Source: a virus. Taken from it: a stretch of DNA of 13,309 nt. Location: the UHGV virus genome UHGV-0315017; one strand, given 5' to 3'. The notes below the pieces were generated by a model, which was given only the letters and a program-made list of their open reading frames with translations, did not search any database and had not been told where the DNA came from. Of the stretch, positions 406 through 13,309 are shown piece by piece (within the stretch, counting starts at the first letter, position 1; the number at the start of each line of letters is the position of its first letter). The translations under genes and the position numbers were made by a program.

Positions 406-482
406 CGGCACGTAGCGCAGCCTGGTAGCGCACCGTCATGGGGTGTCGGGGGTCGGAGGTTCAAATCCTCTCGTGCCGACCA
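406..482 (+). tRNA. proL: tRNA-Pro, anticodon GGG
   Basis: 77-nt sequence CGGCACGTAGCGCAGCCTGGTAGCGCACCGTCATGGGGTGTCGGGGGTCGGAGGTTCAAATCCTCTCGTGCCGACCA; cloverleaf features (GTAGCGCAGCCTGGTAGCGC D-arm, GGTTCAAATCC T-arm, U-GGG-G anticodon loop, encoded CCA). Confidence 0.9.
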
Positions 483-487
483 AATCG
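461..487 (+). other. Putative attL core (3' end of tRNA-Pro), partner of a degenerate copy at 12004-12035
   Basis: TCAAATCCTCTCGTGCCGACCAAATC here versus TTAAACTACTCTCGTGGACCAAAAATC at the far end of the element (CTCTCGTG...GACCAAA shared). Confidence 0.5.
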
Positions 488-489
488 CC

Positions 490-660: not shown

Positions 661-690
661 CCCTGTTTTTTCGTGTGGAATCATAGACAT

Positions 691-1932
691 ATGGCGAGAA
701 AAACACACCCATTAACCACAGTGCAGATCAAAGCAGCCAGACCAGCGCAAAAGGAGTACACCCTGCAGGACGGCGGAGGGCTTTTTCTCCTGGTCAAACC
801 GTCTGGATCAAAACTCTGGAGATTTTCCTACTACCGACCATCGGACAAAAAAAGAATATTGCTGAGTTTTGGATCGCTTGAAGATGTTTCCCTGGCTGAT
901 GCCAGAAAACGCCGTAGCGAGTACAGGACGTTAATCAGTGCCGGAACTGACCCGCAGGACCACGAGAGGCAAAAAAGAGAGACAGAGGCCCGAAGACAAG
1001 GGAACACGTTCGAAAATGTGGCGGCGGCATGGTACCAGGTGAAAATCAGCCAGAATCTGGCCCCCAACACGATTAAAGACATCTGGCGTTCGCTGGATAA
1101 ATATGTATTCCCGTTCATCGGCAACACGCCAATAGATACCCTCACCGCCCGAAGGTTCGTTGAAGTGCTTACCCCCATCAAGGAGCGCGGCAACCTGGAA
1201 ACACTCAAGCGGGTTTTACAGCGCGTTAATGAGGTAATGGATTACGCCGCCAACAGTGGGCTGATTGATGCCAATCCGGCTATGAATGTGCGTAAGGCGT
1301 TTCCCTCACCTGTAAAAAAACATATGCCAACAATCCGCCCCGAACAGCTGCCGGAGCTTATGCAGGCTTTATCAGTATCGGCAACAGAACGGCAGACCAG
1401 ATTACTGATTGAATGGCAGTTACTGACCGTAACCCGTCCCGCCGAAGCGTCATCAACGCGGTGGGATGAAATCAACCTGGACGCGAAGCAATGGACGATA
1501 CCTGCCGGACGCATGAAGATGCGCAGGGATCACGTTATCCCGCTTTCCGGTCAGGCTATGGCGGTGCTGGAGGCCATGAAACCAATCAGCCACCACCGCA
1601 ATTACGTTTTCCCAAGTCTGAAAGACCCACAGCAGCCGATGAACAGCCAGACAGCTAACGCAGCATTGCGGCGTATGGGATTCGCTGGCGTGCTGGTGTC
1701 TCATGGATTACGCGCCATATTCAGCACAGCAGCGAACGAGGAAGGATTCGAGCCGGACGTAATAGAGGCGGCACTTGCCCACGTCGACACCAACGAAGTT
1801 AGACGGGCATACAACCGGAGCAACTACATAGAAAAACGCATCGTGCTGATGCGCTGGTGGGGCGAATTTGTCGAGGCTGCGGCGACGGGCGTAACCCTCG
1901 CCAGTGGTAAAAGGGGTATCCGAGCCGTGTAG
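691..1932 (+). CDS. int: Tyrosine recombinase / integrase, P4 type
   Basis: N-terminal region (LTTVQIKAARP...YTLQDGGGLFLLVKPSGSKLWRFSYY) typical of P4-family integrases; C-terminal catalytic region with HGLR and terminal Tyr motifs (VSHGLRAIFSTAA...AYNRSNY). ATG at 691 preferred over GTG at 673 from the ORF track. Confidence 0.9.
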   Translation: MARKTHPLTTVQIKAARPAQKEYTLQDGGGLFLLVKPSGSKLWRFSYYRPSDKKRILLSFGSLEDVSLADARKRRSEYRTLISAGTDPQDHERQKRETEARRQGNTFENVAAAWYQVKISQNLAPNTIKDIWRSLDKYVFPFIGNTPIDTLTARRFVEVLTPIKERGNLETLKRVLQRVNEVMDYAANSGLIDANPAMNVRKAFPSPVKKHMPTIRPEQLPELMQALSVSATERQTRLLIEWQLLTVTRPAEASSTRWDEINLDAKQWTIPAGRMKMRRDHVIPLSGQAMAVLEAMKPISHHRNYVFPSLKDPQQPMNSQTANAALRRMGFAGVLVSHGLRAIFSTAANEEGFEPDVIEAALAHVDTNEVRRAYNRSNYIEKRIVLMRWWGEFVEAAATGVTLASGKRGIRAV

Positions 1933-2410: not shown

Positions 2411-2428
2411 TTCACAAGGTAAATCACG

Positions 2429-2635
2429 ATGGAAGCAATCAGAAAAATTATCTTTCGCCAGGAAGTAAAAAAAATTATCCACATCAAGGCAGACAGCACG
2501 CTGCAAAGCATGATCAACGCCGGAGAATTTCCGCAGGGTTTTCGCGTTGGTTTACGCCGTCGCGGATGGTATGAGGATGATGTGTTGGCCTGGCAGAAAG
2601 AACGCGAACAGGAAGCACGCGGAACGGCTGCTTAA
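2429..2635 (+). CDS. alpA: AlpA-family (prophage regulatory / excisionase-like) helix-turn-helix protein
   Basis: 68 aa; spacing of conserved residues (STL..I..G.FP....LG.R..GW.E.DV..W) matches the AlpA/Xis-like family as recalled; position after int is typical for P4-like and PICI elements. Confidence 0.75.
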   Translation: MEAIRKIIFRQEVKKIIHIKADSTLQSMINAGEFPQGFRVGLRRRGWYEDDVLAWQKEREQEARGTAA

Positions 2636-2660
2636 CGGGTATCACAGATATGACAAACAC

Positions 2661-2688
2661 GAAAAAAGCGGCCCCGATATGGAGCCGC
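2661..2688 (-). terminator. Probable terminator for the leftward RHH operon
   Basis: GCGGC / GCCGC stem with 11-nt loop; on the minus strand it is followed by a T6 run (plus-strand CGAAAAAA at 2661-2667). Confidence 0.45.
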
Positions 2689-2783
2689 CTTTCTGAACAA
2701 TTAACCCGCTGCGCCTTATGTGTATGTGATCCCAAACATAAGCACGGGGATGATAGCCGCTATCAGGCTGGTGGGCAATGCAA

Positions 2784-2972
2784 TCAGTCTGGTTCAGTTC
2801 GTTGCCATACCTGCAATGAGCGCTTTTCCCTATACTCTTTAAGGAATTGCTCAAGGGCAAAAGCACATGGCGCGAATCTTTCTGATTCATGCTCTATCTT
2901 TCTGCGCCGTCTTTTCCGTGCCGGTGATAATGTTTTGGTCAATTCTTTATCAGTCATTGTGTTGTCCTGCAT
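2784..2972 (-). CDS. Hypothetical basic small protein, downstream partner of the RHH gene (alternative start at 2957 has a better SD)
   Basis: 62-aa ORF with KRRRRK basic patch; ATG at 2957 is preceded by AGGAC; convergent with alpA and ends before the terminator at 2661-2688. Confidence 0.4.
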   Translation of the reverse strand: MQDNTMTDKELTKTLSPARKRRRRKIEHESERFAPCAFALEQFLKEYREKRSLQVWQRTEPD

Positions 2973-3014
2973 AGCAATGCGCCGTAATACCTCACACCAC
3001 GGCGCTGATAGTGA

Positions 3015-3194
3015 TTATTCTGATTCTTTGGCCTTGCGGCGCTGGCGGCGTTTGATCTCGCCTTCAAGTGCCGAAACGATAAATTGCCCTGTACTTTCGC
3101 CATCTTCCTTTAAATTTTCTACAGCATCAGCTATTGCGTGAGGTACTCGAGCCTCAAGCTTTTTGGATTTTGCATTAACTGCTTTTGTTGCCAT
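3015..3194 (-). CDS. Ribbon-helix-helix (CopG/Arc-like) DNA-binding protein, candidate island repressor
   Basis: Internal start MATKAVNAKSKKLEARVPHAIADAVENLKEDGESTGQFIVSALEGEI: basic beta-strand then two helices; GAGGAA SD 7 nt upstream of the ATG at 3194. The ORF-track 5' extension to 3323 is rejected. Confidence 0.65.
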   Translation of the reverse strand: MATKAVNAKSKKLEARVPHAIADAVENLKEDGESTGQFIVSALEGEIKRRQRRKAKESE

Positions 3195-3363
3195 ATCTGA
3201 TTTCCTCGTTATTAGGTGGCTGACAGTATACACACAAGAAAACGGAAAAACACTATTGACGTGGCTGACACCTTTATCAAGGTAATCGATGAAAAGACAA
3301 AGCCCCGCAAGTGTCGTTACCACTCGCAGGGCTTCTAACCAACAACGTAAACTAGGAGCCGTT
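3195..3363. promoter_or_regulatory. Divergent promoter region with direct repeats GTGGCTGACA (3215-3224 and 3260-3269)
   Basis: One repeat overlaps a rightward TTGACG -35-like hexamer, the other lies beside a leftward TATACT -10-like hexamer. Confidence 0.5.
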
Positions 3364-3561
3364 ATGGTTGCTGTAAATCATATACCACACCTTGTACACA
3401 CACAAACGGCCTTTGTGTGGCGTTTTCTGGCACTGAGTGCCGGAGAATCTCAAATCATCCACGTAACCGCCTGGACGGAACGCGAAGCGCGTGGCCGTTG
3501 CCCGTCCGGTTGTGTTGCAGTATTCGCCGCCCGTATTCGTCAGGGGTCACATCATGCGTAA
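3364..3561 (+). CDS. Hypothetical small protein, paralog A (65 aa)
   Basis: AGGAG SD 7 nt upstream; shares FVWRF...TEREAR...ARIRQG motifs with the product of 3848-4015. Confidence 0.5.
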   Translation: MVAVNHIPHLVHTQTAFVWRFLALSAGESQIIHVTAWTEREARGRCPSGCVAVFAARIRQGSHHA

Positions 3562-3639
3562 AAACCGCTTGCAAAAAATTATAACGGGGCTGTATGCTTC
3601 CCCCGTCGCCCACATGGCGACCGGGTTTAGCAGCCTGAA

Positions 3640-3683
3640 TACTGTAGCGGACAGCCGCTTATATTCCGATATGCGGTTTTTTT
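3640..3683 (+). terminator. Hairpin plus T-run between the two paralog genes
   Basis: AGCGGACAGCCGCT and CCGC..ATAT/ATATGCGG stems followed by TTTTTTT (3677-3683). Confidence 0.4.
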
Positions 3684-3847
3684 GTGTCCGTAAGCCTACC
3701 CATACCCGCATTATGGCGGGGCGTAACGGGGGAGCCTTTGCGCTCGCTGGTTCCTACAGTGCCAGTCTGCTAACCCTGTTACGTCTCGCCACCCCGTTTA
3801 GCAGCGTAGTAGCGAGACTCCTTAAAATTACTGTAGGAGCCTTTCAC

Positions 3848-4015
3848 ATGGCTGTATCCGCACGCCCTTACTTTGTCTGGCGCTTTATGCAGTGCCAGGA
3901 AAAACAAACATCACTCTTTACCGTCACGGCAGCAACAGAACGCGAAGCCCGCGCCCAGCTGCCGCACGCACATCTGATTTTTGTCGCCCGTATTCGTCAG
4001 GGGGTAGGCTTATGA
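3848..4015 (+). CDS. Hypothetical small protein, paralog B (55 aa)
   Basis: AGGAGCC SD 9 nt upstream of ATG 3848; C-terminal 46 aa align with paralog A. The 174-aa ORF-track call from 3491 is rejected. Confidence 0.5.
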   Translation: MAVSARPYFVWRFMQCQEKQTSLFTVTAATEREARAQLPHAHLIFVARIRQGVGL

Positions 4016-4242
4016 GCCAGGAAATCACACTACAACAGGCAGCAGAACGCGCCCACCAAATCGAAGTTATTTGCGCACTGGCAGAGGATTACCCTGGCAT
4101 GATGACCGACAGCGAATCAGGGGCAATCATCGGCTTACTTAAACGCCTTAGCGGTGAGGTCTGCGTATTCCTGATCGATGAACAGGAAAGAAGAACGCTT
4201 ATTTCTAACGAAAAAAAATGCGGAGGGGTACATGTGCAATAA
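4012..4242 (+). CDS. Hypothetical protein (76 aa), translationally coupled to paralog B (ATGA overlap)
   Basis: Internal Met of ORF 3892-4242 with start overlapping the upstream stop; no recognisable motif. Confidence 0.45.
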   Translation: MSQEITLQQAAERAHQIEVICALAEDYPGMMTDSESGAIIGLLKRLSGEVCVFLIDEQERRTLISNEKKCGGVHVQ

Positions 4243-4462
4243 AACCACACCGGACGCAGCAGAAGAAGCAATGCAAATACTGATACGTGCGCTCGTTGAT
4301 GTTACCCACATGGTGGAGATTATGGAGAGAAAATCACAGTCGGAGCACGACAAAAGAAAACTTAAAACAATAAAAATAATTGCCAAAAACTCGCTGATAA
4401 AAGTTACAGACATCCTTAATGAGGACATTAAAAGAATAAGGGAGAAAATTTGTGATGCATAA
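4232..4462 (+). CDS. Hypothetical protein (76 aa) in AT-rich segment
   Basis: GGAGGGG SD 5-6 nt before ATG 4232; Lys/Ile/Glu-rich, predicted helical; composition visibly more AT-rich than flanks. Confidence 0.5.
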   Translation: MCNKTTPDAAEEAMQILIRALVDVTHMVEIMERKSQSEHDKRKLKTIKIIAKNSLIKVTDILNEDIKRIREKICDA

Positions 4463-4682
4463 AATCGATTTTGAAGTATTAATCCACTCTGAAAACGCAT
4501 TAATTAAAGCACGCGAAATGAATGCGTTGTTAATTAAATTAATTGAAGTGCCGGAAGGTGGCGAAGATCATTCATCATTAATGTTTGCCGCTGTTCAGAC
4601 ATTATTGACACCTGTTATTGATGAACTCAATAAGGCTATGGCAATTCACGAGAATAATAAAGCGCCCCACACCGGAGAATAA
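4455..4682 (+). CDS. Hypothetical protein (75 aa) in AT-rich segment, overlaps the previous gene
   Basis: GGAGAA SD 8 nt before ATG 4455; start overlaps the stop of 4232-4462. Confidence 0.5.
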   Translation: MHKIDFEVLIHSENALIKAREMNALLIKLIEVPEGGEDHSSLMFAAVQTLLTPVIDELNKAMAIHENNKAPHTGE

Positions 4683-4687
4683 AAATA

Positions 4688-4987
4688 ATGAAACTTAAAT
4701 ATTCTGGCTTAACTGCCAGTGGCAAAACTCGCACTAAATTCATGCGCGGTGATATTTACCGCGACCAGTACGGCGGCACGGTAATGATTAAGGGCGTGGA
4801 GGAACGGCGCATCACCTACCGTCGTGAAGGCTACGAATATGATTGCGTGATGCCTGTTTATCAGTTTCGGCGTGATTTTTCTCTGGTACAGGCAGCGCCC
4901 CGCAGTAAACCAACCAGCAGGGAGAAAGCACGCGCCAATATTCAGGAAATAAAAAAGATGCTTAACGTATTCAGGGGTAAAAAATGA
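4688..4987 (+). CDS. Hypothetical protein (99 aa) immediately upstream of and coupled to the primase gene
   Basis: GGAGAA SD; stop overlaps the primase start (ATGA at 4984-4987). Confidence 0.55.
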   Translation: MKLKYSGLTASGKTRTKFMRGDIYRDQYGGTVMIKGVEERRITYRREGYEYDCVMPVYQFRRDFSLVQAAPRSKPTSREKARANIQEIKKMLNVFRGKK

Positions 4988-6732
4988 AACTGGCACCGAA
5001 CGTAAAAAAACAACCACGCGGAATAAAACACAAAGACACAGAGGTAATTATTTTCGCGGGTAGTGATGCGTGGGCACATGCAAAACAGTGGCAGGAGCAG
5101 GACGGCCCCGCATCCGGCGATAATGTGCCGCCTGTGTGGCTTGGGCCAAATCAGCTTGCCGAACTTGATGCACTGAAAATTGTTCCGGATGGAAAAAAAC
5201 GCGTAAGGCTGTACCAGGCCGGAGAACTGGATTTGGTGGAGACCAAAAAGATTGGTCAGAAGCTGGCGGCGGCAGATATTCAGGACGCAAATTTTTACCA
5301 CGAAGGAATGCACGTCCAGAAGTGTGAAAACTGGCGGCGCTATCTGAATGCTGAGCGTGAAAATATTGCCGCAGGGCTTACCATGCCGGAGCAGAAAAAT
5401 ACGCAACTGGCACAAATGGCAGACAGTGAGCGCGCGCAGCTGCTTGCCGAGCGCTTTGATGGCGTTTGTGTGCATCAGGAAAGTGAAATCGTTCACGTAT
5501 GGCGCGGCGGGGTATGGTGTCCGGTCAGCACAATGGAACTTAGCCGCGAAATGGTGGCGATCTATTCAGAGCACAGGGCCACTTTCAGCAAGCGCGTAAT
5601 CAATAACGCCGTGGAAGCGTTAAAAGTTATTGCCGAACCAATGGGCGAGCCGTCCGGCGATTTGCTGCCGTTCGCCAATGGTGCGCTTGACCTGAAAACG
5701 GGGGAATTTTCCCCGCACACGCCGGAGAACTGGATCACCACGCACAACGGCATTGAGTACACGCCACCAGCACCTGGGGAGAACATCCGCGATAACGCGC
5801 CAAACTTTCATAAATGGCTTAAGCACGCAGCCGGAAAAGACCCGCGCAAGATGATGCGTATATGTGCCGCGCTGTACATGATTATGGCGAACCGGTACGA
5901 CTGGCAGATGTTTATTGAGGCCACCGGAGACGGCGGGAGCGGTAAAAGTACATTCACGCACATAGCCAGCCTTCTGGCAGGGAAACAGAACACGGTAAGC
6001 GCTGAAATGACATCGCTTGATGATGCTGGTGGACGTGCGCAGGTTGTCGGGAGTCGTCTTATCGTCCTGGCTGACCAGCCGAAATATACAGGCGAAGGAA
6101 CGGGCATCAAGAAAATCACGGGCGGTGACCCCGTGGAAATTAACCCGAAATACGAAAAGCGTTTCACGGCTGTAATCAGGGCGGTGGTGCTGGCGACCAA
6201 CAATAACCCGATGATATTCACCGAACGGGCCGGAGGTGTGGCACGTCGTCGCGTGATTTTCCGTTTCGACAATATCGTCAGTGAGGCCGAAAAAGACAGG
6301 GAGCTACCGGAAAAGATCGCGGCTGAAATCCCTGTCATTATCCGCCGATTGCTGGCGAACTTTACCGACCCTGAGAAGGCACGGGCTTTACTACTGGAAC
6401 AGCGTGACGGTGATGAAGCTCTGGCAATAAAGCAACAGACGGATCCGGTTATTGAGTTTTGCCAGTTCCTGAATTTTCTGGAGGAAGCACGCGGCCTGAT
6501 GATGGGCGGCGGTGGCGATTCAGTGAAGTACACGACCAGGAACAGCCTTTACCGCGTCTATCTGGCGTTTATGGCATACGCAGGCAGGAGCAAACCGCTA
6601 AACGTAAATGACTTTGGCAAGGCTATGAAGCCTGCCGCAAAAGTTTACGGACATGAATATATTACGCGGAAAGTTAAGGGGGTAACGCAGACTAACGCAA
6701 TAACAACAGACGAGTGCGACGCGTTTTTATAA
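4984..6732 (+). CDS. Replication initiator: primase / SF3 (D5-like) helicase, P4 alpha-like C-terminal region
   Basis: 582 aa with Walker A GDGGSGKST and downstream helicase-like motifs; size and position match the pri-rep genes of P4-like and PICI elements. Confidence 0.85.
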   Translation: MKLAPNVKKQPRGIKHKDTEVIIFAGSDAWAHAKQWQEQDGPASGDNVPPVWLGPNQLAELDALKIVPDGKKRVRLYQAGELDLVETKKIGQKLAAADIQDANFYHEGMHVQKCENWRRYLNAERENIAAGLTMPEQKNTQLAQMADSERAQLLAERFDGVCVHQESEIVHVWRGGVWCPVSTMELSREMVAIYSEHRATFSKRVINNAVEALKVIAEPMGEPSGDLLPFANGALDLKTGEFSPHTPENWITTHNGIEYTPPAPGENIRDNAPNFHKWLKHAAGKDPRKMMRICAALYMIMANRYDWQMFIEATGDGGSGKSTFTHIASLLAGKQNTVSAEMTSLDDAGGRAQVVGSRLIVLADQPKYTGEGTGIKKITGGDPVEINPKYEKRFTAVIRAVVLATNNNPMIFTERAGGVARRRVIFRFDNIVSEAEKDRELPEKIAAEIPVIIRRLLANFTDPEKARALLLEQRDGDEALAIKQQTDPVIEFCQFLNFLEEARGLMMGGGGDSVKYTTRNSLYRVYLAFMAYAGRSKPLNVNDFGKAMKPAAKVYGHEYITRKVKGVTQTNAITTDECDAFL

Positions 6733-6744
6733 TTTTTTGTAATT

Positions 6745-6972
6745 GCTGTCTACCCTGTCTACCCGAGTAAAGAAAAATACATTTAATTCAGTGCATTAAG
6801 TTAGGTAGATGGCCTTTTTTTACTGTCTACCCACTATCTACCCTCTCTACCTGATTTTACCTGAATCAGACAGGGAGGTAGACACGGGGTAGATACTGGA
6901 TAAAAGCACTCTACCCCGCTGAAAGCCGCGCCATTACTGGTATGAGGGCCACTAAGGTAGATAAGGTAGACA
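6745..6972. repeat. Iteron array (candidate replication origin): about 12 copies of TCTACC(C) / GGTAGA(C/T) in both orientations
   Basis: CTGTCTACCCTGTCTACCC, GGTAGATGG, CTGTCTACCCACTATCTACCCTCTCTACC, GAGGTAGACACGGGGTAGAT, CTCTACCCC, AAGGTAGATAAGGTAGAC; non-coding and immediately downstream of the primase-helicase gene. Confidence 0.65.
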
Positions 6973-7020
6973 AGGGGAGGCACAACTCAAAACTTTTTAA
7001 ACGAGGGGGTAAAAATAAAT

Positions 7021-7299
7021 ATGCACACTTCAGGGAAATTTAATAAATCACTCAAAAAACGCAGAGACAGAACAGAACCGAAATATCGCGCGTTAGACAT
7101 TACAGAGCACGCTTTAAAGGTGGCAATCAGAACGATAGACCGCCACGCGGGGGAAGGATACGCGAAAGCACATCCCGAACTGATAAGCGCATTCATGACC
7201 ACGACGGCGGCAAATTTTGCCACGCTGACAGAGCGGGAGATTGCCGAAGCGGAACAGGTAACAACCATCAACGTTAAAACCGGAGAGGTGGAATCATGA
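7021..7299 (+). CDS. Hypothetical protein (92 aa)
   Basis: GAGGGGG upstream of ATG; coupled to the ssb start (ATGA at 7296-7299). Confidence 0.55.
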   Translation: MHTSGKFNKSLKKRRDRTEPKYRALDITEHALKVAIRTIDRHAGEGYAKAHPELISAFMTTTAANFATLTEREIAEAEQVTTINVKTGEVES

Positions 7300-7706
7300 C
7301 AGCACAGATAGCCGCTTACGGGCGGCTAGTGGACGACCCGCAGGTAAAACAGACCAGCAAGGGCACACCGATGACGCTGGCGCGTATGGCGGTATCGTTG
7401 CCATGTAGTCAGGCGCAGGATGGGCAGGCGACGTTATGGCTATCGGTCATCGCATTTGGTAAGCAGGCCGACTTCCTGGCTAAACATCAAAAAGGCGACG
7501 TTGCCAGCGTATCCGGCACGATGCAGGTCAGCCAGTGGACCGGACAGAACGGGGAAACGCGGCAGGGTTATCAGGTTATTGCAGACAGCGTAATCAGTGC
7601 CCGTGCGGCACGTCCTGGCGGGAACAGACGCAAAACCACAGGCACACAGGGTAATCAGCCACCAGCGGGAGACGATGACCCCTACGGTGATGATATTCCG
7701 TTCTGA
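7296..7706 (+). CDS. ssb: Single-stranded DNA-binding protein (compact, 136 aa)
   Basis: OB-fold-like N-terminal region, Gly/Gln/Pro-rich linker and acidic C-terminal tail DDDPYGDDIPF matching the conserved SSB tail (...DDDIPF). Confidence 0.85.
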   Translation: MTAQIAAYGRLVDDPQVKQTSKGTPMTLARMAVSLPCSQAQDGQATLWLSVIAFGKQADFLAKHQKGDVASVSGTMQVSQWTGQNGETRQGYQVIADSVISARAARPGGNRRKTTGTQGNQPPAGDDDPYGDDIPF

Positions 7707-7714
7707 ACGCACAG

Positions 7715-7736
7715 GCCGGAGAAAATCCGGCTTTTT
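7715..7736 (+). terminator. Rho-independent terminator after ssb
   Basis: GCCGGA gaaaa TCCGGC hairpin plus TTTTT. Confidence 0.75.
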
Positions 7737-7742
7737 GTATCC

Positions 7743-7786
7743 AAAAAAAGCCCGATAAGTACAGGAGGAAGCTTATCGGGCTTTTG
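7743..7786. terminator. Second hairpin terminator (bidirectional: A-run upstream, T-run downstream)
   Basis: GCCCGATAAG ... CTTATCGGGC 10-bp stem, 12-nt loop, then TTTT. Confidence 0.6.
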
Positions 7787-7858
7787 CTTACGAGGTTAAC
7801 AGCATGGTGACTACTGTTGCCGTAAATCATTTCATAATTTGCAACGTAACTCAATTTC

Positions 7859-7908
7859 ATTGCGCAAAATGCAATCCTGATTATAATCAGGACTGGATGA
7901 ACATCCAG
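7859..7908 (+). promoter_or_regulatory. Candidate capsid-operon promoter (TTGCGC - 16 bp - TATAAT) embedded in an 18-bp perfect palindrome, followed by a second palindrome
   Basis: TCCTGATTATAATCAGGA (7875-7892) contains a consensus -10 hexamer; CTGGATGAACATCCAG (7893-7908) follows directly; about 35 nt upstream of the ATG at 7944. Confidence 0.5.
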
Positions 7909-7943
7909 TTATGATTTTTTAAGTCAAAGAGGAATTTCTTACT

Positions 7944-9206
7944 ATGGCTGAAGAGAAAAAAGGCGGTGTTTCGGTGTACATAAGCCCCGACATCGTGAAG
8001 GCGCTCAAGGAACGCCACCAGCAGAACGTAAAAGCAGGCATTGCGGCAGGACTTGACCCGCTGGCGATGGTTGAGCCGTCAACAGGCTGGCAGGTACGCG
8101 CCTATTTACGCGCGGCGCTGGGTATGAATCAGGTTCACGGGGGGGGAATAATGACAGTAAAAGCAATGGCACTTAACACTAACCAGCTTTTTGCGTACCT
8201 GAATCGCGAGGATATTGCGGAATTTAAATTCAGTCCGCTGTTTACCACGCTGTTTTTCCCGAACGTGGCGACATTCAGCACGCAAAACATCATGCTGGAT
8301 ACCCTGGACATTGAAGAAGTCACCATGTCGGCGTTTTGTTCGCCTATGGTGGGTAGCCAGGTTCAGCGCGATAAAGGGTACGAAACCAGCACAATCAAAC
8401 CTGGCTACATGAAGCCAAAGCACGAAATCGATCCAACGAAAACCATCATGCGCATGGCTGGAGAAGATCCGGCACAGCTTAACGACCCTACCTATCGCCG
8501 TATGCGCCTGATTACTGGCAATATGCGCCGCCAGATAAACGCCATAAAAGCGCGCGTGGAATGGCTGGCGGTAAATGCGGTAACGACCGGAAAAAACATC
8601 ATTGAGGGCGAAGGCATAGAGCGCTATGAAATCGACTGGAAGATACCGGAAAAAAACATCATAGAGCAGGCCGACGGTAAAAAATGGTCAGAGCAGGACA
8701 AAGAAATCCACGATCCAATCTATGATATCGAACTATACGCCGATCAGGCAGGTTGCCCCGCCAACGTCATGATTATGGGCGCTGAGGTATGGCGAACGTT
8801 ACGCAGCTTTAAAAAATTCCGTGAGCTGTACGATCTTTCCCGTGGTTCAGAGTCCGCCGCAGAGCTGGCATGTAAAAACCTGGGCGAAGTGGTGAGCTTT
8901 AAAGGCTATCTGGGCGATATTGCCCTTATCGTCTATTCCGGCAAATACGCCGACAGTGACGGCAGAGAAAAATATTTCCTTGAGCCTGATTTGCTTGTCC
9001 TGGGCAACACCAACAATAAAGGGCTGGTGGCCTATGGTGCGATTATGGATCAGGACGCAGTAAGAACGGGGGCAACGCAAAACATGTACTACCCGAAAAA
9101 CTGGATTGAGGACGGAGATCCGGCGATTGAGTACGTGCAGACACACAGTGCACCGCAGCCGGTACCGGCAGTTATTCGCAAATTTGTTACCGTCAAAATT
9201 GGTTAA
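7944..9206 (+). CDS. Major capsid protein, lambda gpE-like, with about 70-aa N-terminal extension
   Basis: Long blocks shared with lambda gpE as recalled: KFSPLF..LFF, PGYMKPKHE, EDPAQLNDPTYRRMR, SFKGYLGDIALIVYSGKY, LVLGNT, YPKNW..GDPA. AGAGGA SD before ATG 7944. Confidence 0.88.
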   Translation: MAEEKKGGVSVYISPDIVKALKERHQQNVKAGIAAGLDPLAMVEPSTGWQVRAYLRAALGMNQVHGGGIMTVKAMALNTNQLFAYLNREDIAEFKFSPLFTTLFFPNVATFSTQNIMLDTLDIEEVTMSAFCSPMVGSQVQRDKGYETSTIKPGYMKPKHEIDPTKTIMRMAGEDPAQLNDPTYRRMRLITGNMRRQINAIKARVEWLAVNAVTTGKNIIEGEGIERYEIDWKIPEKNIIEQADGKKWSEQDKEIHDPIYDIELYADQAGCPANVMIMGAEVWRTLRSFKKFRELYDLSRGSESAAELACKNLGEVVSFKGYLGDIALIVYSGKYADSDGREKYFLEPDLLVLGNTNNKGLVAYGAIMDQDAVRTGATQNMYYPKNWIEDGDPAIEYVQTHSAPQPVPAVIRKFVTVKIG

Positions 9207-9217
9207 CGGGGGATTCT

Positions 9218-9553
9218 ATGGACACTCCATACATTGAGTTATTTGCAGGCAGTCAGCAGGTCGCCACGACGCTGGTACATTTTGCCGCTGATGCTGGCTT
9301 TATTCAGGAATTTACCCCGCTGATGCTGGCGGACAATGGCGAGTTTAAGCCGTGGGATGGTAAGGAATCTGGCAAGGCTGTTTATCTGACCTCGTACCCT
9401 GTGGACACGTCAAAGCAGAAATCAGCACAGTGTTACAAGACGGGGATATTCAATATTGCCGCCGTTAACTGGCCTGAGAGCGTCGACACCGATGCGAAAA
9501 AATGCGCCGCCTTTGCGGGTTCCGGCGTATCCGTTCAGCCGCTGGCCCGATAA
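9218..9553 (+). CDS. Head decoration protein, lambda gpD-like
   Basis: 111 aa; TPLML, WDG, YKTGIF, WPE and KK.AAFAG blocks match lambda gpD (110 aa) as recalled; GGGGG SD. Confidence 0.85.
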   Translation: MDTPYIELFAGSQQVATTLVHFAADAGFIQEFTPLMLADNGEFKPWDGKESGKAVYLTSYPVDTSKQKSAQCYKTGIFNIAAVNWPESVDTDAKKCAAFAGSGVSVQPLAR

Positions 9554-9565
9554 GCAGGGGGAACG

Positions 9566-9979
9566 ATGGCAACGAATGAAAGCATCATGACGCTACCGCT
9601 GGCGAGTAAATTTAAAGCCGAAGCGCGGGCAATGGCTGACAGAGGTTTATCAACCTATGAGGCCGTATATCAACTAAACAAACTGGAAGAGCAGGACAAG
9701 CCGCGCGCTGATGCGATTATGGCGCTTCATGAGCATAAAGACTATCAGCCGCTGTTGCGTGCAATGGCAAACGTGCCTTGTATCGATGTTGGTACGGCTA
9801 AAAGCATCCTTAGCATGACCATAGAGCAGGAACGCCAGAAGGTTGCACCAGAGCTTACCGCAGCCTTTGAAAACTTTATGGACATGCACAGCCCGCAAGC
9901 CGTATCAGCTGGCATGGCATACGATGGCAGAAACCAGGGCGATGACGGCGACATCGATCGCATACTGAAAACCATCTGA
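9566..9979 (+). CDS. Hypothetical protein (137 aa) between the decoration gene and cos
   Basis: AGGGGGA SD; acidic C-terminus (QGDDGDIDRILKTI); no family recognised. Confidence 0.6.
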   Translation: MATNESIMTLPLASKFKAEARAMADRGLSTYEAVYQLNKLEEQDKPRADAIMALHEHKDYQPLLRAMANVPCIDVGTAKSILSMTIEQERQKVAPELTAAFENFMDMHSPQAVSAGMAYDGRNQGDDGDIDRILKTI

Positions 9980-9985
9980 GACAAG

Positions 9986-10009
9986 GCCGGAGAAATCCGG
10001 CTTTTTTTT
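9986..10009 (+). terminator. Rho-independent terminator (near-duplicate of the 7715-7736 hairpin)
   Basis: GCCGGA gaaa TCCGGC plus TTTTTTTT. Confidence 0.8.
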
Positions 10010-10010
10010 A

Positions 10011-10086
10011 CGGGTCCTTTCCGGCATATGGACCCGTTACGGGGCGGCGACCTCGCGGTTTTTCGCTATTTATGAGCTTTTTCAGG
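10011..10086 (+). other. Lambda-type cos site X (cosQ-like, cosN, I2-like); cohesive-end 12-mer at 10042-10053
   Basis: ACGGGTCCTTTCCGG...CCGTTACG|GGGCGGCGACCT|CGCGGTTTTTCGCTATTTATGA closely matches the lambda right-end/left-end junction as recalled (…CGGGTCCTTTCCGGTGATCCGACAGGTTACG | GGGCGGCGACCTCGCGGGTTTTCGCTATTTATGAAA). Confidence 0.8.
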
Positions 10087-10186
10087 GGGGTGGTGGTGGT
10101 TTTGTTGTTTGCTCTATCTTTATGAATGAAAAGGGAAAGATGCAAACAATACACCAACCTGAAGCAGTAATTAAGTTGGTGTATTA

Positions 10187-10729
10187 ATGAAATCGCACCT
10201 GATGAACAAAAAAAACATGGCGAAAAGCTGCCGTGTAAGTGCGACAGCGTTCGACAAGTGGGGAGTGACTCCCGTTGAACGTAAAGGCCGTGAGGCGTTT
10301 TACGATGTTGCCAGCGTGATAGACAATAGGGTTAACAATGCAATTAGCCAGCTTACAAACGACAAAGGCGATATTGATGATGATGAACTCTTACGAGTCA
10401 GGATCAGATTACTGACAGCACAGGCGGAGGCGCAGGAACTTAAAAACGAGCGCGATCGCGGTGACGTGATTGATACTGAGTTTTGCCTGTACGCGCTTTC
10501 AAAGCTGGCGAGTCAGATTTCATCAATCATGGACAGCCTCCCGCTTACTATGCAAAGGAGCTTCCCACAGATTACCCCCGCCATGCTGGATAGGCTTAAA
10601 AGGGAAGTGGTTAAAGCCTGTAATGCCAGTGCCAGAGTTGCCGACAACCTCCCACAGATACTGGCTGATTACTTGAAAGAAACAACCGGAAACGTACCGG
10701 AAAAGTTGCTACAGAAGAAAGGCGAGTAA
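10187..10729 (+). CDS. Terminase small subunit, lambda Nu1-like
   Basis: 180 aa (Nu1 is 181); N-terminal HTH region and central block LTAQAEAQELKNERDRGDVIDTEFCLYALSKLASQISSIMDSLPLTMQRSFP align with lambda Nu1 (LTRAQADAQELKNARDSAEVVETAFCTFVLSRIAGEIASILDGLPLSVQRRFP) as recalled. Confidence 0.85.
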   Translation: MKSHLMNKKNMAKSCRVSATAFDKWGVTPVERKGREAFYDVASVIDNRVNNAISQLTNDKGDIDDDELLRVRIRLLTAQAEAQELKNERDRGDVIDTEFCLYALSKLASQISSIMDSLPLTMQRSFPQITPAMLDRLKREVVKACNASARVADNLPQILADYLKETTGNVPEKLLQKKGE

Positions 10730-10753
10730 CAGACGCGCAATTATTGAACAAAA

Positions 10754-10868
10754 CTGAGAAACGACATGAAAGCGTCATAAATCGCCATTTTAGATGATTA
10801 CCGTGTCGTTTCTTTTTATTGTGTATCTATTTAAAAACAAATAGTTATGTTCGAGAAGTACCGACATG
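10754..10868 (-). promoter_or_regulatory. cosB-like region belonging to cos site Y: R1-like (10754-10768), R2-like (10801-10817), IHF/I1-like AT tract (10821-10844), R3-like (10852-10868)
   Basis: Read on the minus strand from cosN-Y the order is R3-like, I1-like, R2-like, R1-like, as in lambda cosB; cores GTCGTTTCT resemble lambda R sites but differ in their 3' halves. Confidence 0.6.
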
Positions 10869-10874
10869 CTTTTT

Positions 10875-10952
10875 CCAGAAAAATTTTCATAAACAGATAA
10901 AAACCGCGAGGTCGCCGCCCCGTAACGGGCCATAATTCCAGGAAGGACCCGA
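10875..10952 (-). other. Lambda-type cos site Y in inverted orientation; cohesive-end 12-mer at 10909-10920 (minus strand)
   Basis: Reverse complement reads CGGGTCCTTCCTGGAATTATGGCCCGTTACGGGGCGGCGACCTCGCGGTTTTTATCTGTTTATGAAAATTTTTCTGG, about 75 bp near-identical to site X and forming an inverted repeat with it. Confidence 0.8.
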
Positions 10953-10984
10953 CGACACCAGACTATCAGAGCGATGGGGGCACA

Positions 10985-11167
10985 ATGACAGAAGCCGAAA
11001 TACTGGGATTAATCCGCCGTGATGGTATCCAGCTTAATGGCGTGGATATGCGCAACATACGAACCAGAGTTCTTGAGTTGCTGGCCTACCGTCGCCGCGT
11101 TGAGATGTATCGGGAGAAGGAAAAAATTACGTACCACTGGAAGAAGCCGGAGCGGTTGCGGCGGTAA
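10985..11167 (+). CDS. Hypothetical small basic protein (60 aa)
   Basis: GGGGG SD 5 nt before the ATG; Arg-rich; no family recognised. Confidence 0.4.
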   Translation: MTEAEILGLIRRDGIQLNGVDMRNIRTRVLELLAYRRRVEMYREKEKITYHWKKPERLRR

Positions 11168-11231
11168 CTGGTTGATATTTTCGGAAACCTCAATTTGAGG
11201 AGGCCGGAAGCGTCACCCTTTAGATTCTGAA

Positions 11232-11246
11232 TGGTGATAATCACCA
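11232..11246. repeat. 15-bp palindrome TGGTGATAATCACCA (copy 1 of 3)
   Basis: Perfect palindrome; flanked CTGAA...CGCC. Confidence 0.6.
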
Positions 11247-11255
11247 CGCCCAATC

Positions 11256-11290
11256 GTGACGGAGAGTGACAGCCAGTGACACGCCGTGAC
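11256..11290 (+). repeat. Four direct GTGAC repeats at exact 10-bp spacing
   Basis: GTGACggaga GTGACagcca GTGACacgcc GTGAC; one helical turn per repeat. Confidence 0.5.
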
Positions 11291-11399
11291 AAAAGACGGT
11301 TTAACCGTTAATTAAAAATCGACGGGATTTTGTGTTTTCCGGACGACGTGGCCAACGTCATTTTTTAGCGAAAAATTCTGATTAAGGTCATTGTCTGAA

Positions 11400-11414
11400 T
11401 GGTCATAATGACCA
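11400..11414. repeat. 15-bp palindrome TGGTCATAATGACCA (copy 2 of 3)
   Basis: Perfect palindrome, preceded by CTGAA like copy 1. Confidence 0.6.
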
Positions 11415-11494
11415 CGCAGACCATCAAGGCAACCATAACGATTTTCGTTACGGTTGATGTGTGCCTTCGTCCGGCATTCGGACGATATAAGGGA

Positions 11495-11509
11495 TGGTCA
11501 TAATGACCA
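11495..11509. repeat. 15-bp palindrome TGGTCATAATGACCA (copy 3 of 3)
   Basis: Identical to copy 2. Confidence 0.6.
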
Positions 11510-11657
11510 CTCCTACAGAACAGGTAAAACCCACCAGCCTGATTAACAGTTAACCGGAAAAAAATCCGGCATGGGGGGGGAGTGGTTAGCCACGAACAAC
11601 GAATAAGCTGGACACCGCGCCCCCTCTCACGCAGAGAAAAAATTACCGTTTCGTAGT

Positions 11658-11790
11658 AGTTAACATGTTAACTGCCTGATGAAGCGTTGTTGTTGATTTT
11701 GTCTTTATGATTCATCTGGTTGCGAGCAAAAAATGTTAACTACCTTTTTGGTAAAAATGTTAACAGGGCAGAGGTTAACATTAACCTGGC
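11658..11790. repeat. Cluster of GTTAAC-containing motifs including the 16-bp palindrome AGTTAACATGTTAACT
   Basis: AGTTAACATGTTAACT, AATGTTAACTACC, AATGTTAACAGGG, GGTTAACATTAACC read directly in non-coding DNA. Confidence 0.4.
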
Positions 11791-11796
11791 GTAAAT

Positions 11797-11822
11797 CCCG
11801 ATATGGTGATCACCATATCGGG
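11797..11822. repeat. 26-bp perfect palindrome CCCGATATGGTGATCACCATATCGGG
   Basis: Read directly; equals its own reverse complement. Confidence 0.6.
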
Positions 11823-11927
11823 GAACATCCACCAGCTTAAAAACGAATGAGCGAAAAAAAATCCAGGTAGAATCATGGAAGTCGCTAGGGCAATCGCCGT
11901 TTAAATTGTGCATTTTTTCAGCAAATT

Positions 11928-11952
11928 ATTTTAGTTATACGTTTGGTTATAC
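11928..11952 (+). repeat. Arm-type direct repeat TTTTAGTTATACGTTTGGTTATACGG, partner of 604-628
   Basis: 24 of 25 positions identical to the left-end copy. Confidence 0.55.
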
Positions 11953-12003
11953 GGTTTAAAAGTTGAATCAATAATATTTATTAAAATCATGCGGTTACAC
12001 GCT

Positions 12004-12035
12004 AAATTAAACTACTCTCGTGGACCAAAAATCCC
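12004..12035 (+). other. Putative attR core: degenerate copy of the tRNA-Pro 3' end
   Basis: TAAATTAAACTACTCTCGTGGACCAAAAATCCC versus tRNA TTCAAATCCTCTCGTGCCGACCAAATCGCCC. Confidence 0.5.
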
Positions 12036-12068
12036 AAGAAAAAACCAACCTTCACGGTTGGTTTTTTT
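12036..12068. terminator. Bidirectional rho-independent terminator between the island end and the convergent autotransporter-like gene
   Basis: A-run, CCAACC ttcac GGTTGG hairpin, T-run (GTTTTTTT). Confidence 0.75.
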
Positions 12069-12129
12069 ATATCTGCATTTAATTCGATAAACAGACAGCG
12101 ACACATCACGGCCTGTTTATTTTCTGTTA

Positions 12130-13083
12130 TCAGAACGTCCAGACTACACCCGCCTGAGTTGTGCTGCTTTCTTCACGGGAGAAACGACTATCGATACCGA
12201 GCGTCAGCCCCGTCAATGTTTGCTCAAAGCCAGCGCCTGCATCAGTGGTCACGTCGTTGCGGCTGTTAATTGCCGAACTCCACATCGCCGTATCGTAATT
12301 AACGCCTTTTACGCTACCAAGACGCCCACGCACGGTGTCCAGTTCTGCATCAAATACCAGCGGTTGTGCTGCCGCCATATTCAGCACATCCGTGGTTGAA
12401 GGGGTCATTTGTGCGCGATTCTCTGCGAGACTCCAGCTATGGTTGCCATTATCCAGCAAGGTATATTCATACGTACTGATATCAACAACGCTTCCGGCAT
12501 TGCCCAACGTAAATGCAGCATCACCGCCGCCCGTTGTTACCAGTGTAAGGCTATCTCCTGCTGCCGGGCTGGCACCGGTGTCCGTCACGAATATTTTGAA
12601 ATCACCTGTTGCTTTAACCTCCAGTAGTCCTCCCTTTTCTATAACGGCAAAGACGGCAATCCCATCTTTTTCAACAATTAAGCGCCCGCCTTTAATCGTG
12701 GGATCATTCGCCGCGCCATAAACCTGTAGCACTCCATTATTGATCGTAGTCTGATTTACCGCGCCACCCATTTGAACAATTTGATAACCATCATTTAATA
12801 CTGCGTATTCTGCGGTGCCATTTATTTCAACGTACTGATATCCCCCGTTAATTTCAGTATTACTACTTACACCAAATTCTTATATATGCTGTTCTCCGCC
12901 AGGATTGATTTTCGTATTATTGGCGGTCCAATAAACCAGCTGGATATCTTTTTCCAGGACAACACCATCAACTGGCTCACCATACTCAACAGTTGATGCC
13001 AATGCTATGGGCGAATATAACGCTGTAGCCACCAGAACAGATATTGCGGAACGACAAAGAGAAACAGAACCAGATTGGTGCAT
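12130..13083 (-). pseudogene. Autotransporter/adhesin-like gene interrupted by an in-frame TAA (12880-12882); possibly a yejO-type locus
   Basis: ORFs 12880-13083 (signal-peptide-like N-terminus) and 12130-12771 (Gly/Thr-rich beta-helix-like repeats ending ...VVWTF) are in the same frame, separated by a single TAA. The total length is too short for a complete autotransporter. Confidence 0.5.
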
Positions 13084-13309
13084 TAAGCTTTCATCCTATG
13101 AAATTAATTGCTGTTAAAAGCATTGGGGACAGAAAATACCCATAGCTCCATACCCGGAGTCAGTTTTAAAAAACTGTTTAAAGAAATGCACAAGTATTGT
13201 GATTGATTTTTTAGTTGTTTTTCTTGATGAGAAGCTGATGCAAAATTCCGTCTTTATAATGAAAATGATGCCAAAGCGAACGACAAGGTTGTAGTTTTCA
13301 CTACATGTC

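Follow-up and report, generated by a model that had tools for sequence, protein, structure and literature searches.

A capsid, decoration and scaffold-domain module in a Gram-negative cos-type PICI, and an apparent one-base fusion in its capsid reading frame

A capsid gene and a decoration gene of lambda kinship within a satellite raise the question of whether such an element builds a shell of its own. In the window, by which we mean the whole stretch of 13,309 nucleotides analysed here (UHGV virus genome UHGV-0315017), an initial annotation had proposed that the island makes its own smaller decorated shell, with about 70 extra N-terminal residues of the capsid protein serving as a built-in scaffold or size determinant. 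We consider it highly probable that 7944-9979 holds the late, capsid-encoding module of an ordinary PICI of the Gram-negative cos type. For this island family, the genes for the capsid and decoration proteins had already been published in 2018, and the one part that looked new, the N-terminal extension, is a one-base homopolymer fusion.

The element is a satellite, namely a Gram-negative cos-type PICI of the EcCICFT073 family, located at tRNA-Pro between yejM and yejO. The yejM-proL surroundings of the tRNA are identical in context to E. coli genomes. The att cores at 468 and 12015 delimit about 11.55 kb, which agrees with the 11.6 kb first estimated. The island features outside the late module and packaging region are as follows.

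406..484, + strand: tRNA-Pro (GGG) with the attL core CTCTCGTG at 468-484 (ARAGORN, Rfam tRNA, att core repeat)
673..1932, + strand: tyrosine integrase (Pfam Phage_integrase, Phage_int_M, Arm-DNA-bind_3)
2429..2635, + strand: AlpA-like HTH regulator (weak Pfam Phage_AlpA match)
3709..3796, + strand: C4 / P4-CI-type antisense immunity RNA (Rfam RF01695, 71.5 bits, gathering score 45)
4688-4987: DUF4222 gene, preceding the primase-helicase
4984..6732, + strand: P4/D5-type primase-helicase (Pfam D5_N, DUF5906, Pox_D5; phrog_864, E 1.7e-170)
7296..7706, + strand: SSB (Pfam SSB, E 4.2e-17)
7713..7785, + strand: two hairpin terminators at the end of the replication operon, 5' of the capsid module (terminator scan, inverted repeats)
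10985..11167, + strand: phrog_1561 gene (PHROG match), shortened in the window by an in-frame 99-bp deletion
12015..12031, + strand: attR core (att core repeat)

The product of 2429..2635 matched Phage_AlpA at E 0.0035 with 17.6 bits, under the 21-bit cut-off; its counterpart in relatives is annotated as an HTH regulator, and its position is consistent with AlpA. Compared with the SatelliteFinder core set for Gram-negative PICIs (PMC10085698), the island carries an integrase at one end adjoining att, a primase-replicase module (D5_N, DUF5906, Pox_D5, phrog_864), and a capsid-morphogenesis gene with a small terminase, and it has no further structural or lysis genes. The integrase, primase, and capsid genes are the only + strand ORFs longer than 200 aa in the window. 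None of the window ORFs encodes a portal, protease, or large terminase, in accordance with the first description of gpE-like and gpD-like genes that lack portal and protease.

The capsid module comprises four co-oriented genes between terminators, encoding the 68-aa, capsid, decoration, and 137-aa proteins, and is followed by cos and the Nu1-type terminase.

7944..8150, + strand: satellite-specific 68-aa gene, which in the window reads through into the capsid gene (phrog_3255, E 1.7e-34)
8139..8146, + strand: G8 homopolymer, whose extra G relative to the G7 allele causes the fusion; in relatives the tract, GGGGGTGA, doubles as the putative capsid Shine-Dalgarno (junction alignments)
8151..9206, + strand: capsid gene proper, for a 351-aa lambda gpE-family (HK97-fold) major capsid protein (Pfam PF03864)
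9218..9553, + strand: gpD/SHP-family head decoration protein, 111 aa, c1500 orthologue (Pfam PF02924, HDPD)
9566..9979, + strand: 137-aa "mini-Nu3", homologue of the lambdoid gpC/Nu3 C-terminal domain (phrog_1999, E 3.8e-66)
9983..10012, + strand: intrinsic terminator at the end of the capsid module (terminator scan)
10030..10130, + strand: cos1, in which an exact lambda cosN (10042-10053) precedes a G-rich cosB specific to the island (lambda cosN match)
10187..10729, + strand: Nu1-type small terminase (TerS), at the position of RppA in EcCICFT073 (Pfam Phage_Nu1, E 2.3e-23)
10740..10926, - strand: cos2, inverted, with an exact lambda cosN at 10909-10920 and a lambda-like cosB (lambda cosN match)

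The product of 8151..9206 matched Phage_cap_E at E 7.9e-50 over profile positions 14-328 of 329 and was collinear with lambda gpE (43% identity over 328 residues, E 8e-92). The full-length profile and gpE matches place it in the gpE family, as the initial annotation had claimed. In profile comparison with the PDB, E was 2.5e-233 for 3BQW and 1.3e-81 for lambda gpE (7VI9), and the protein is 97% identical to c1499 of EcCICFT073. Judged by these matches, it is the orthologue of c1499 and of 3BQW. The latter entry, a crystal structure described as a "putative capsid protein of prophage", has 351 aa and no N-terminal extension; its first Met corresponds to window position 8151, and the best match spans residues 1-350. 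About ten substitutions separate it from the window protein, and the ten differences found in its sequence are the same ones as in the CFT073 genome copy. The dN/dS values of the capsid gene were between 0.13 and 0.20 against every relative but the near-identical L006.

The decoration gene follows the capsid gene, so that the reported order of E then D holds for the window. Its assignment as a gpD homologue was likewise borne out by the HDPD profile, which was matched at E 1.1e-16 with 61.5 bits against a cut-off of 29.1, in agreement with membership in the gpD/phage 21 SHP family. Identity is 36% with lambda gpD (76 residues aligned) and 99% with c1500 of EcCICFT073. The best PDB matches were 1TD0 and 1TD3 (E 9e-13), with lambda gpD at 4e-9.

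The ORF at 7944-9206 is open in the window and encodes 420 aa, of which residues 95-418 correspond to Phage_cap_E. For comparison, the junction was fetched from five E. coli relatives (Nissle 1917, NCTC9112, NCTC86, strain 300709, and CFT073). All five annotate the 68-aa gene as a CDS of its own, its stop codon overlapping the capsid start as TAATG. In the alignment at 8139-8146, the window has G8; strain 300709 has G7, and the other relatives read GGGGGTG. Across the coding part of the module, comparison with four relatives showed no indel besides the extra G. The 420-aa ORF is a fusion, in which one extra G (G7 to G8) brings the 68-aa gene in frame with the capsid gene. The G8 allele occurred in none of 52 complete E. 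coli genomes matching the junction, and the extension in none of 86 capsid-homologue clusters; the 20 closest full-length clusters measure 347-352 aa and cover 81-84% of the query. Scanning genome and metagenome contigs for exact patterns detected no fused form, and nine metagenome contigs carried unfused alleles.

The extra G, to judge from this distribution, reflects either an error of sequencing or assembly or a mutation private to this sequence, and not a designed extension. The small gene was separate in all relatives that we examined, and the protein family as a whole has no such extension. The described N-terminal extension of about 70 residues stood only as an open frame in the window, and in relatives it is a separate 68-aa gene belonging to phrog_3255. 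The suggestion that it acts as a built-in scaffold or size determinant is not supported, given its origin in a single-base homopolymer insertion, absent from the genomes, clusters, and contigs above. Normally the capsid protein begins at the internal Met (8151) and not at the start of the 420-aa frame, which is essentially the case that the initial annotation had named as speaking against its reading. This ATG and the G-rich, Shine-Dalgarno-like tract are kept, and the normal 351-aa protein could still be made.

We also considered whether the 420-aa fusion might be genuine and functional, arising from a change in G-tract length, or in relatives from a -1 ribosomal slip on this tract, and providing an N-terminal scaffold like the HK97 delta-domain. 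The joining of an N-terminal scaffold domain to the capsid protein is well established for HK97; moreover, the ORF is open in the window, and the slippage-capable G7 allele of strain 300709 exists in nature. However, a delta-domain-type scaffold would be part of the capsid protein throughout the family, and here the window alone is fused, with the fusion seen nowhere else among the clusters, the 52 genomes, and the genome and metagenome scans. In most relatives, GGGGGTG is not a homopolymer, the small gene keeps its own conserved stop in a position suited to translational coupling (TAATG), and 3BQW was solved as a 351-aa protein. The model of the 68-aa protein, a small two-helix unit of moderate confidence, gave no significant structural match, and the protein matched none of the scaffold families. 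A functional fusion is accordingly very improbable. Programmed frameshifting in particular was rejected because a slippery homopolymer is missing from most alleles and fused products are not known.

What remains of the extension is the small gene itself, which is probably c1498 of EcCICFT073. All 31 clusters of homologues of the small protein are stand-alone, with 52-105 aa, and its dN/dS was 0.16-0.31 in the three comparisons having any amino-acid change. A tblastn search with the 68-aa protein gave no match in 50,697 phage records, and a profile search against the PDB returned nothing. Structure prediction of the extension, which the initial annotation had suggested, gave an AlphaFold (AF2) model with two short helices at pLDDT 70 that bears no resemblance to a scaffold; nor did the extension match any entry in Pfam, NCBIfam, or the PDB profiles, or any structure by Foldseek at E <1. 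A ribbon-helix-helix fold, suggested by the pattern VSVYIS...helix...helix, is compatible with the AF2 model but unproven, as Foldseek against the PDB yielded no match at E <1. The weak Foldseek matches in the PDB include TraM and NikA, which we take to be RHH-type proteins. Scans of NCBIfam and Pfam assigned no family to the 68-aa, 137-aa, and 93-aa proteins.

The fourth gene of the module altered the initial picture in another respect. It had been stated that the island has no scaffold gene, whereas the gene next to the decoration gene encodes a homologue of the gpC/Nu3 C-terminal domain, as profile and sequence comparisons show. Its family, phrog_1999, also takes in parts of two scaffold proteins, matching gpC of the CFT073 helper prophage at residues 365-501 with E 1.5e-68 and lambda Nu3 at residues 117-200 with E 2.7e-26. 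By BLASTP, the 137-aa protein is 36% identical to CFT073-type gpC (E 2e-9), and by tblastn it matches annotated Nu3. Direct BLASTP against lambda gpC was not significant, the link running via CFT073-type gpC and the PHROG profile only. The protein consists of the C-terminal part of a scaffold and a distinct 48-residue N-terminus. An exhaustive HMMER search with it returned eight matches, indicating a narrow family. It is 97% identical to its EcCICFT073 counterpart, and the gene is probably c1501. We found no experiment on c1501 function in the literature searched, and the literature consulted on EcCICFT073-type PICIs does not mention a scaffold-domain homologue in the module.

Downstream of the module, TerS aligns with lambda Nu1 along its entire length at 35% identity and shows no similarity to RppA. 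With a Nu1-type TerS in place of an Rpp protein, the details of packaging may differ from those of EcCICFT073. The island TerS would bind cos1 and recruit a gpA-type large terminase of the helper. Four island copies (4 x 11.55 kb = 46.2 kb, 95% of lambda) would fill a normal T=7 head. The capsid protein E, the decoration protein D, and mini-Nu3 show purifying selection and have full length by comparison with those of lambda; most likely they are competent for assembly and would join proheads nucleated on the portal and protease of the helper. Such participation would bring an advantage with natural helpers that laboratory assays missed.

The closest experimentally studied relative is EcCICFT073, the prototype Gram-negative cos PICI, which has two lambda-type cosN sites and a similar gene span (PMC6092414; PMC6739421). 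Both islands carry the integrase, alpA (putative in the window), Bro/icd zone, DUF4222, primase, SSB, 68-aa, capsid, decoration, and 137-aa genes in the same order. EcCICFT073 differs in lying between roxA and phoQ, in encoding the 144-aa RppA where our island has a full-length Nu1-type TerS, and in having a PerC gene. In addition, it lacks the +1 G that fuses the small ORF and the capsid gene in the window. Helper-dependent induction, packaging, and transfer were demonstrated for EcCICFT073, and its packaged DNA was phage-sized, with two cos sites (PMC6092414). With lambda, it was packaged in normal-sized capsids (PMC6893505), and upon induction in CFT073 a band of the PICI monomer was absent (PMC6092414). 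Deletion of c1499 or c1500 left transfer and lambda interference unchanged (PMC6092414), and delivery still worked after c1498-c1501 had been replaced by cas9 (PMC10530653). Furthermore, EcCICFT073 has to match in size an exact fraction of its helper's genome (PMC10530653). The terminase of the helper packages EcCICFT073 from the island's own cos into heads of phage size, and with EcCICFT073 as a proxy the same would hold for the window island.

These results argue against the proposed shell of smaller size, since the proxy, whose corresponding proteins are 97%, 99%, and 97% identical, packaged phage-sized DNA and its c1499 and c1500 deletions were silent (PMC6092414). The helper-sized particles of the proxy point the same way, in experiments whose marked islands, as far as the text names them, carried either cat in place of c1499 or a tetA cassette at c1501 (PMC6092414). 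A test with the intact module may therefore never have been reported.

Two broader alternatives were weighed against the reading of an ordinary cos-type PICI. The lambdoid origin shared by the E, D, Nu3-like, and Nu1-like genes and the lambda cosN would fit a remnant of an ordinary lambdoid prophage head operon. However, the gene order is unlike that of lambda, and the genes are intact and under purifying selection. The layout is that of a full PICI (integrase, AlpA-like gene, C4 RNA, P4-type primase, SSB), with tRNA att repeats and a size that is conserved at about 11.5 kb. The 3.6-kb module also recurs, at 80% or more of its length, in 492 of 5426 complete E. coli genomes (about 9%), and parts of it in about 37% of complete E. 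coli genomes. On this architecture and recurrence, we rejected the remnant reading, to which we give next to no probability, and the satellite status first proposed was upheld.

The other alternative is a partially capsid-forming satellite, in which E, D, and mini-Nu3, perhaps with the 68-aa protein, form an island shell, possibly a smaller one, on the helper portal when the right natural helper is present. The SaPI1 protein CpmB is a competing internal scaffold, and mini-Nu3 could act likewise while TerS sends island DNA into the shell; this mechanism we regard as unlikely, like the shell itself. In its favour, the capsid protein is full-length, collinear with gpE, and accompanied by its own cognate decoration protein, both genes showing purifying selection across E. 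coli and Salmonella islands (dN/dS 0.11-0.30), and mini-Nu3 has the scaffold C-terminal domain. The island length of 11.55 kb is near the capacity of a T=3 shell, estimated by simple volume scaling from lambda. PmCI172, a Gram-negative PICI with a capsid homologue, makes small capsids, and the markers of the published negative tests lay in c1499 or at c1501 (PMC6092414). Against it stand the phage-sized DNA, and nothing else, of EcCICFT073 with lambda and the missing monomer band in CFT073 (PMC6092414), the undiminished transfer after c1499 or c1500 deletion or c1498-c1501 replacement (PMC6092414, PMC10530653), and the finding that the island behaves in size like an exact fraction of its helper (PMC10530653), four copies of 11.55 kb making up 95% of lambda. 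Moreover, a related lineage lacks mini-Nu3 and the 68-aa gene. It is correspondingly doubtful that EcCICFT073-type PICIs are "semi-capsid-forming" on a stolen portal and protease, with the published negatives being artefacts of the markers or of the choice of lambda or phi80 as helper. The ordinary-PICI reading itself leaves a puzzle: the module is under purifying selection and widespread and includes a scaffold-domain homologue, yet it is dispensable in every laboratory assay reported, as regards the capsid gene, the decoration gene, and c1498-c1501 in EcCICFT073.

Comparison with other systems sets this module among known satellites. The head genes and cos resemble those of lambda, with identities of 43% (gpE), 36% (gpD), and 35% (Nu1), the same PHROG for the Nu3 C-terminal domain, and an identical cosN. 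Lambda has the order cos, Nu1, A, W, B, C/Nu3, D, E, whereas the island has E, D, Nu3-like, cos, Nu1 and is devoid of A, W, B, the C protease domain, FI, and FII; its Nu3-like protein retains the C-terminal part only, behind the distinct N-terminus, and the cosB of cos1 is unlike that of lambda. SaPIbov5 is likewise a cos-packaged satellite encoding a homologue of the helper major capsid protein, Ccm (PMC6893505), and the literature had already drawn the comparison with this staphylococcal cos island that the initial annotation made (PMC6092414, PMC6893505). Ccm leads to small isometric capsids and strong interference, whereas the near-identical EcCICFT073 capsid gene does neither (PMC6092414), and unlike Ccm the window capsid homologue is accompanied by a decoration protein and part of a scaffold, both encoded by the island.

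Capsid-forming PICIs such as EcCIEDL933 (bioRxiv 10.1101/2022.09.08.507074) have the same backbone of integrase, alpA (putative in the window), and primase and likewise encode a small terminase and a capsid protein of the HK97 fold. They add portal, protease, head-tail connectors, HNH, and large terminase genes and demonstrably build small capsids, whereas the window ORFs include none of these additions. The P4-like capsid-hijacking genes sid, psu, and delta were found among none of the 13 scanned ORFs, and what the island has in common with P4 is limited to the primase type and the C4 RNA. Helper-embedded PICIs of the 11capE type (PMC10111431) belong to the same family; one example, L009, encodes its own E, D, and Nu1-type TerS but lies inside the E gene of a prophage and not at a tRNA gene, and its lineage has a capsid protein only 54% identical to that of the window and is without the 68-aa and 137-aa genes. 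That this distant lineage has E, D, and TerS without these two genes implies that they are not obligatory capsid partners. A capsid gene is present in 21 of 29 reference Gram-negative PICIs (PMC10111431), and capsid and terS are core PICI components (PMC10085698).

The gpE-like capsid gene and the gpD-like decoration gene recognized in the initial annotation are real and had been correctly identified, as ORFs 7944-9206 (420 aa) and 9218-9553 (111 aa). Residues 95-418 of the 420-aa product match Pfam Phage_cap_E (E 7.9e-50), and the product shares 43% identity with lambda gpE (E 8e-92), with which the capsid protein is collinear save for a few short indels. The 111-aa product has a gpD-family match (E 1.1e-16) and shares 36% identity with lambda gpD itself; among solved structures, its best relatives are the head decoration proteins 1TD0 and 1TD3. 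The gene order, E then D, was also as described, and no ORF in the window fits a portal, protease or large terminase, in agreement with the reported lack of the first two.

The N-terminal extension of about 70 residues, however, had been taken for a feature of the capsid protein and turned out to be a one-base fusion unique to the window sequence. PHROGs splits the 420-aa product, assigning residues 1-67 to phrog_3255 (E 1.7e-34), a family of proteins of roughly 79 aa with function unassigned, and the remainder to major head proteins. Two separate genes are annotated in the E. coli strains Nissle 1917, NCTC9112, NCTC86, 300709, CFT073 and MS 21-1, where a 68-aa gene precedes a 351-aa capsid gene, with the TAA of the first and the ATG of the second overlapping (TAATG). 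In the alignments, the junction reads CAC-GGGGGTG-AATAATG in most relatives, CAC-GGGGGGG-AATAATG (G7) in strain 300709 and CAC-GGGGGGGG-AATAATG in the window, where a G8 run occupies 8139-8146; the additional G places the small gene and the capsid gene in frame. This insertion is the sole indel in the module coding sequence against four relatives, all other differences being substitutions. The G8 allele occurred in none of the 52 complete genomes matching the junction, and exact-pattern scans of genome and metagenome contigs gave no match to the G8 junction; unfused alleles are present in nine metagenome contigs. None of the 86 clusters of capsid homologues has the extension. The 20 closest full-length capsid clusters measure 347-352 aa (81-84% query coverage), and the small-protein clusters are 52-105 aa long (31 of 31). 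The fusion arose by homopolymer error or private mutation. Because the G tract of the relatives, GGGGGTGA, approximates the Shine-Dalgarno consensus five bases 5' of the capsid ATG, the extension represents a separate, translationally coupled upstream gene. Another G8 homopolymer lies at 11573-11580, outside coding sequence in the island's right arm. In P0030, a 463-aa representative of a capsid-homologue cluster from a related PICI lineage (3.2-kb contig), PF03864 and PF02924 share a single ORF; this capsid-decoration fusion, too, is probably artefactual, produced by read-through or a frameshift where the intergenic gap is short.

The 68-aa protein is satellite-specific, and tblastn against 50,697 phage records gave no match to it. 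Its gene is under purifying selection (dN/dS 0.16-0.31 in comparisons with any amino-acid change). The AlphaFold model consists of an extended N-terminus and two helices (pLDDT 70), and structural and profile searches with the protein gave no significant match. Just 5' of the ribosome-binding site of the small gene, overlapping inverted repeats (ATGCAATCCTGATTA / TAATCAGGACTGGAT / CATCCAGTTATGATT) at 7869-7916 may serve the capsid module as an operator or activator site. A search of 7786-7943 for a sigma-70 consensus promoter was negative.

The initial annotation had also found no scaffold, which must be revised. The decoration gene is followed by an ORF at 9566-9979, whose 137-aa product is assigned to phrog_1999 (E 3.8e-66). 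Three scaffold-type proteins match this profile as well: the gpC homologue encoded by the CFT073 icd prophage (residues 365-501, full profile, E 1.5e-68), lambda Nu3 (residues 117-200, E 2.7e-26) and a 195-aa Nu3-like protein. The 137-aa protein is 36% identical to the gpC C-terminus by BLASTP (E 2e-9), and tblastn matches a phage gene annotated Nu3; thus, the island carries a mini-Nu3, in which the scaffold's C-terminal domain follows a different N-terminus of 48 residues. We found no description of this gene as a gpC/Nu3 C-terminal-domain homologue in the literature searched. It is probably c1501 of EcCICFT073, the prototype Gram-negative cos PICI, and the site of the 2018 tetA marker.

The element belongs to a satellite family that is already published and is an ordinary representative of it. 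The left end of the window holds the 3' end of yejM and tRNA-Pro(GGG) at 406-482, and the right end a degraded yejO autotransporter gene; between these flanks lies an element of 11.55 kb, both ends marked by the repeat CTCTCGTG... at 468 and 12015. Its main features are listed below.

Features of the island
Gene order, + strand: tyrosine integrase, weak AlpA-like HTH gene, C4 RNA, DUF4222, P4/D5-type primase, SSB, capsid-module genes, Nu1-type small terminase
3709-3796, + strand: C4/P4-CI-type antisense immunity RNA (Rfam RF01695, 71.5 bits), between alpA and primase
7713-7785 and 9983-10004: terminators flanking the four-gene block
10042-10053, + strand: cos1, exact lambda cosN with a G-rich, non-lambda cosB
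10909-10920, - strand: cos2, exact lambda cosN with a lambda-like cosB bearing inverted GAAACGACA/TGTCGTTTC elements

Just within each island end, at 592-628 and 11918-11954, is the repeat TTTTAGTTATACGTTT(A/G)GTTATACGG, with more CGTATAACTAAA copies at 634-661; these repeats are probably arm-type sites for the integrase. The phrog_1561 gene (10985-11167) has an in-frame 99-bp deletion at about 11014, between short CGCCGTG repeats, and its product is 60 aa long in the window; Nissle 1917 and NCTC9112 encode one of 93 aa.

The two cosN copies stand in opposite orientation, one on each side of terS, an arrangement mirrored in EcCICFT073. Both islands share the four-gene block, with 97% identity for the capsid protein (from the internal Met at 8151), 99% for the decoration protein and 97% for the 137-aa protein. 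PDB 3BQW is the crystal structure of this capsid protein; it has 351 aa, starts at the equivalent of Met 8151, and differs from the window protein at exactly the sites where the CFT073 genome copy does. The islands differ beyond the block: EcCICFT073 has the 144-aa RppA where the window island has a 180-aa Nu1-type TerS, which is unrelated to RppA and 35% identical to lambda Nu1 over its full length.

The capsid and decoration genes and the idea of size redirection have already been published for this family. In EcCICFT073, c1499 was named a capsid gene and c1500 a decoration gene, and they were likened to SaPIbov5 Ccm (Fillol-Salom et al., 2018, PMC6092414). A capsid gene occurs in 21 of 29 reference Gram-negative PICIs (PMC10111431) and is a core component in SatelliteFinder (PMC10085698). 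Direct evidence on the near-identical EcCICFT073 proteins speaks against the proposal that the module makes a smaller shell. Deletion of c1499 or c1500 left lambda interference and transfer unaltered, and the packaged DNA was entirely phage-sized (PMC6092414). Of the genes 3' of ori expressed one by one, only c1503 (rppA) inhibited lambda (PMC6739421), and island delivery persisted when c1498-c1501 were swapped for cas9 (Ibarra-Chavez et al., 2020, PMC10530653). EcCICFT073 has a capsid homologue, yet its packaging with lambda is of normal size (review by Dokland, PMC6893505). On the other side, the markers that the 2018 text names are located in c1499 or at c1501 (PMC6092414), lambda and phi80 are perhaps not the relevant helpers, and the shortened scaffold may be likened to SaPI1 CpmB. 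Given the direct evidence, we therefore consider a smaller shell quite improbable.

By analogy with EcCICFT073, multimer packaging in helper-size heads is our preferred reading: a lambdoid helper would mobilize the island, which would be cut at its own cos. The genome of a cos island must stay an exact fraction of that of its helper (PMC10530653); four island copies amount to 46.2 kb, or 95% of lambda, which fits multimer packaging into full-size heads. The island TerS would read cos1 and recruit the large terminase of the helper, and E, D and mini-Nu3 could join proheads nucleated by the helper portal and protease. In EcCICFT073, the capsid module is dispensable for packaging and transfer in the laboratory (PMC6092414, PMC10530653).

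The points that retain value are the module's unexplained conservation and the adjacent Nu3-domain gene. Against E. coli and Salmonella relatives, dN/dS was 0.13-0.20 for the capsid gene (dS up to 2.3; 0.42 against the near-identical relative L006, where dS is just 0.009), 0.11-0.30 for the decoration gene, 0.22-0.38 for mini-Nu3 and 0.10-0.38 for TerS. All four are working genes rather than decaying captures. Of 5426 complete E. coli genomes, 2700 have DNA that matches some portion of the island, and 492 contain at least 80% of the 3.6-kb capsid-plus-terminase stretch. Another PICI lineage of E. coli, more distantly related and with a capsid protein 54% identical to that of the window, retains E, D and TerS and lacks both the 68-aa gene and mini-Nu3. 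In L009 (ENA metagenome scaffold, 1-13100), a helper-embedded PICI of this lineage, equipped with E, D and a Nu1-type TerS of its own, is inserted in the E (major capsid) gene of a lambdoid prophage, splitting it into pieces of 91 and 254 aa. A Salmonella island retains the small gene, E, D and TerS, with no called homologue of the 137-aa gene between D and TerS. Since the 68-aa gene or mini-Nu3 is missing in other lineages, E and D form the constant core of the module.
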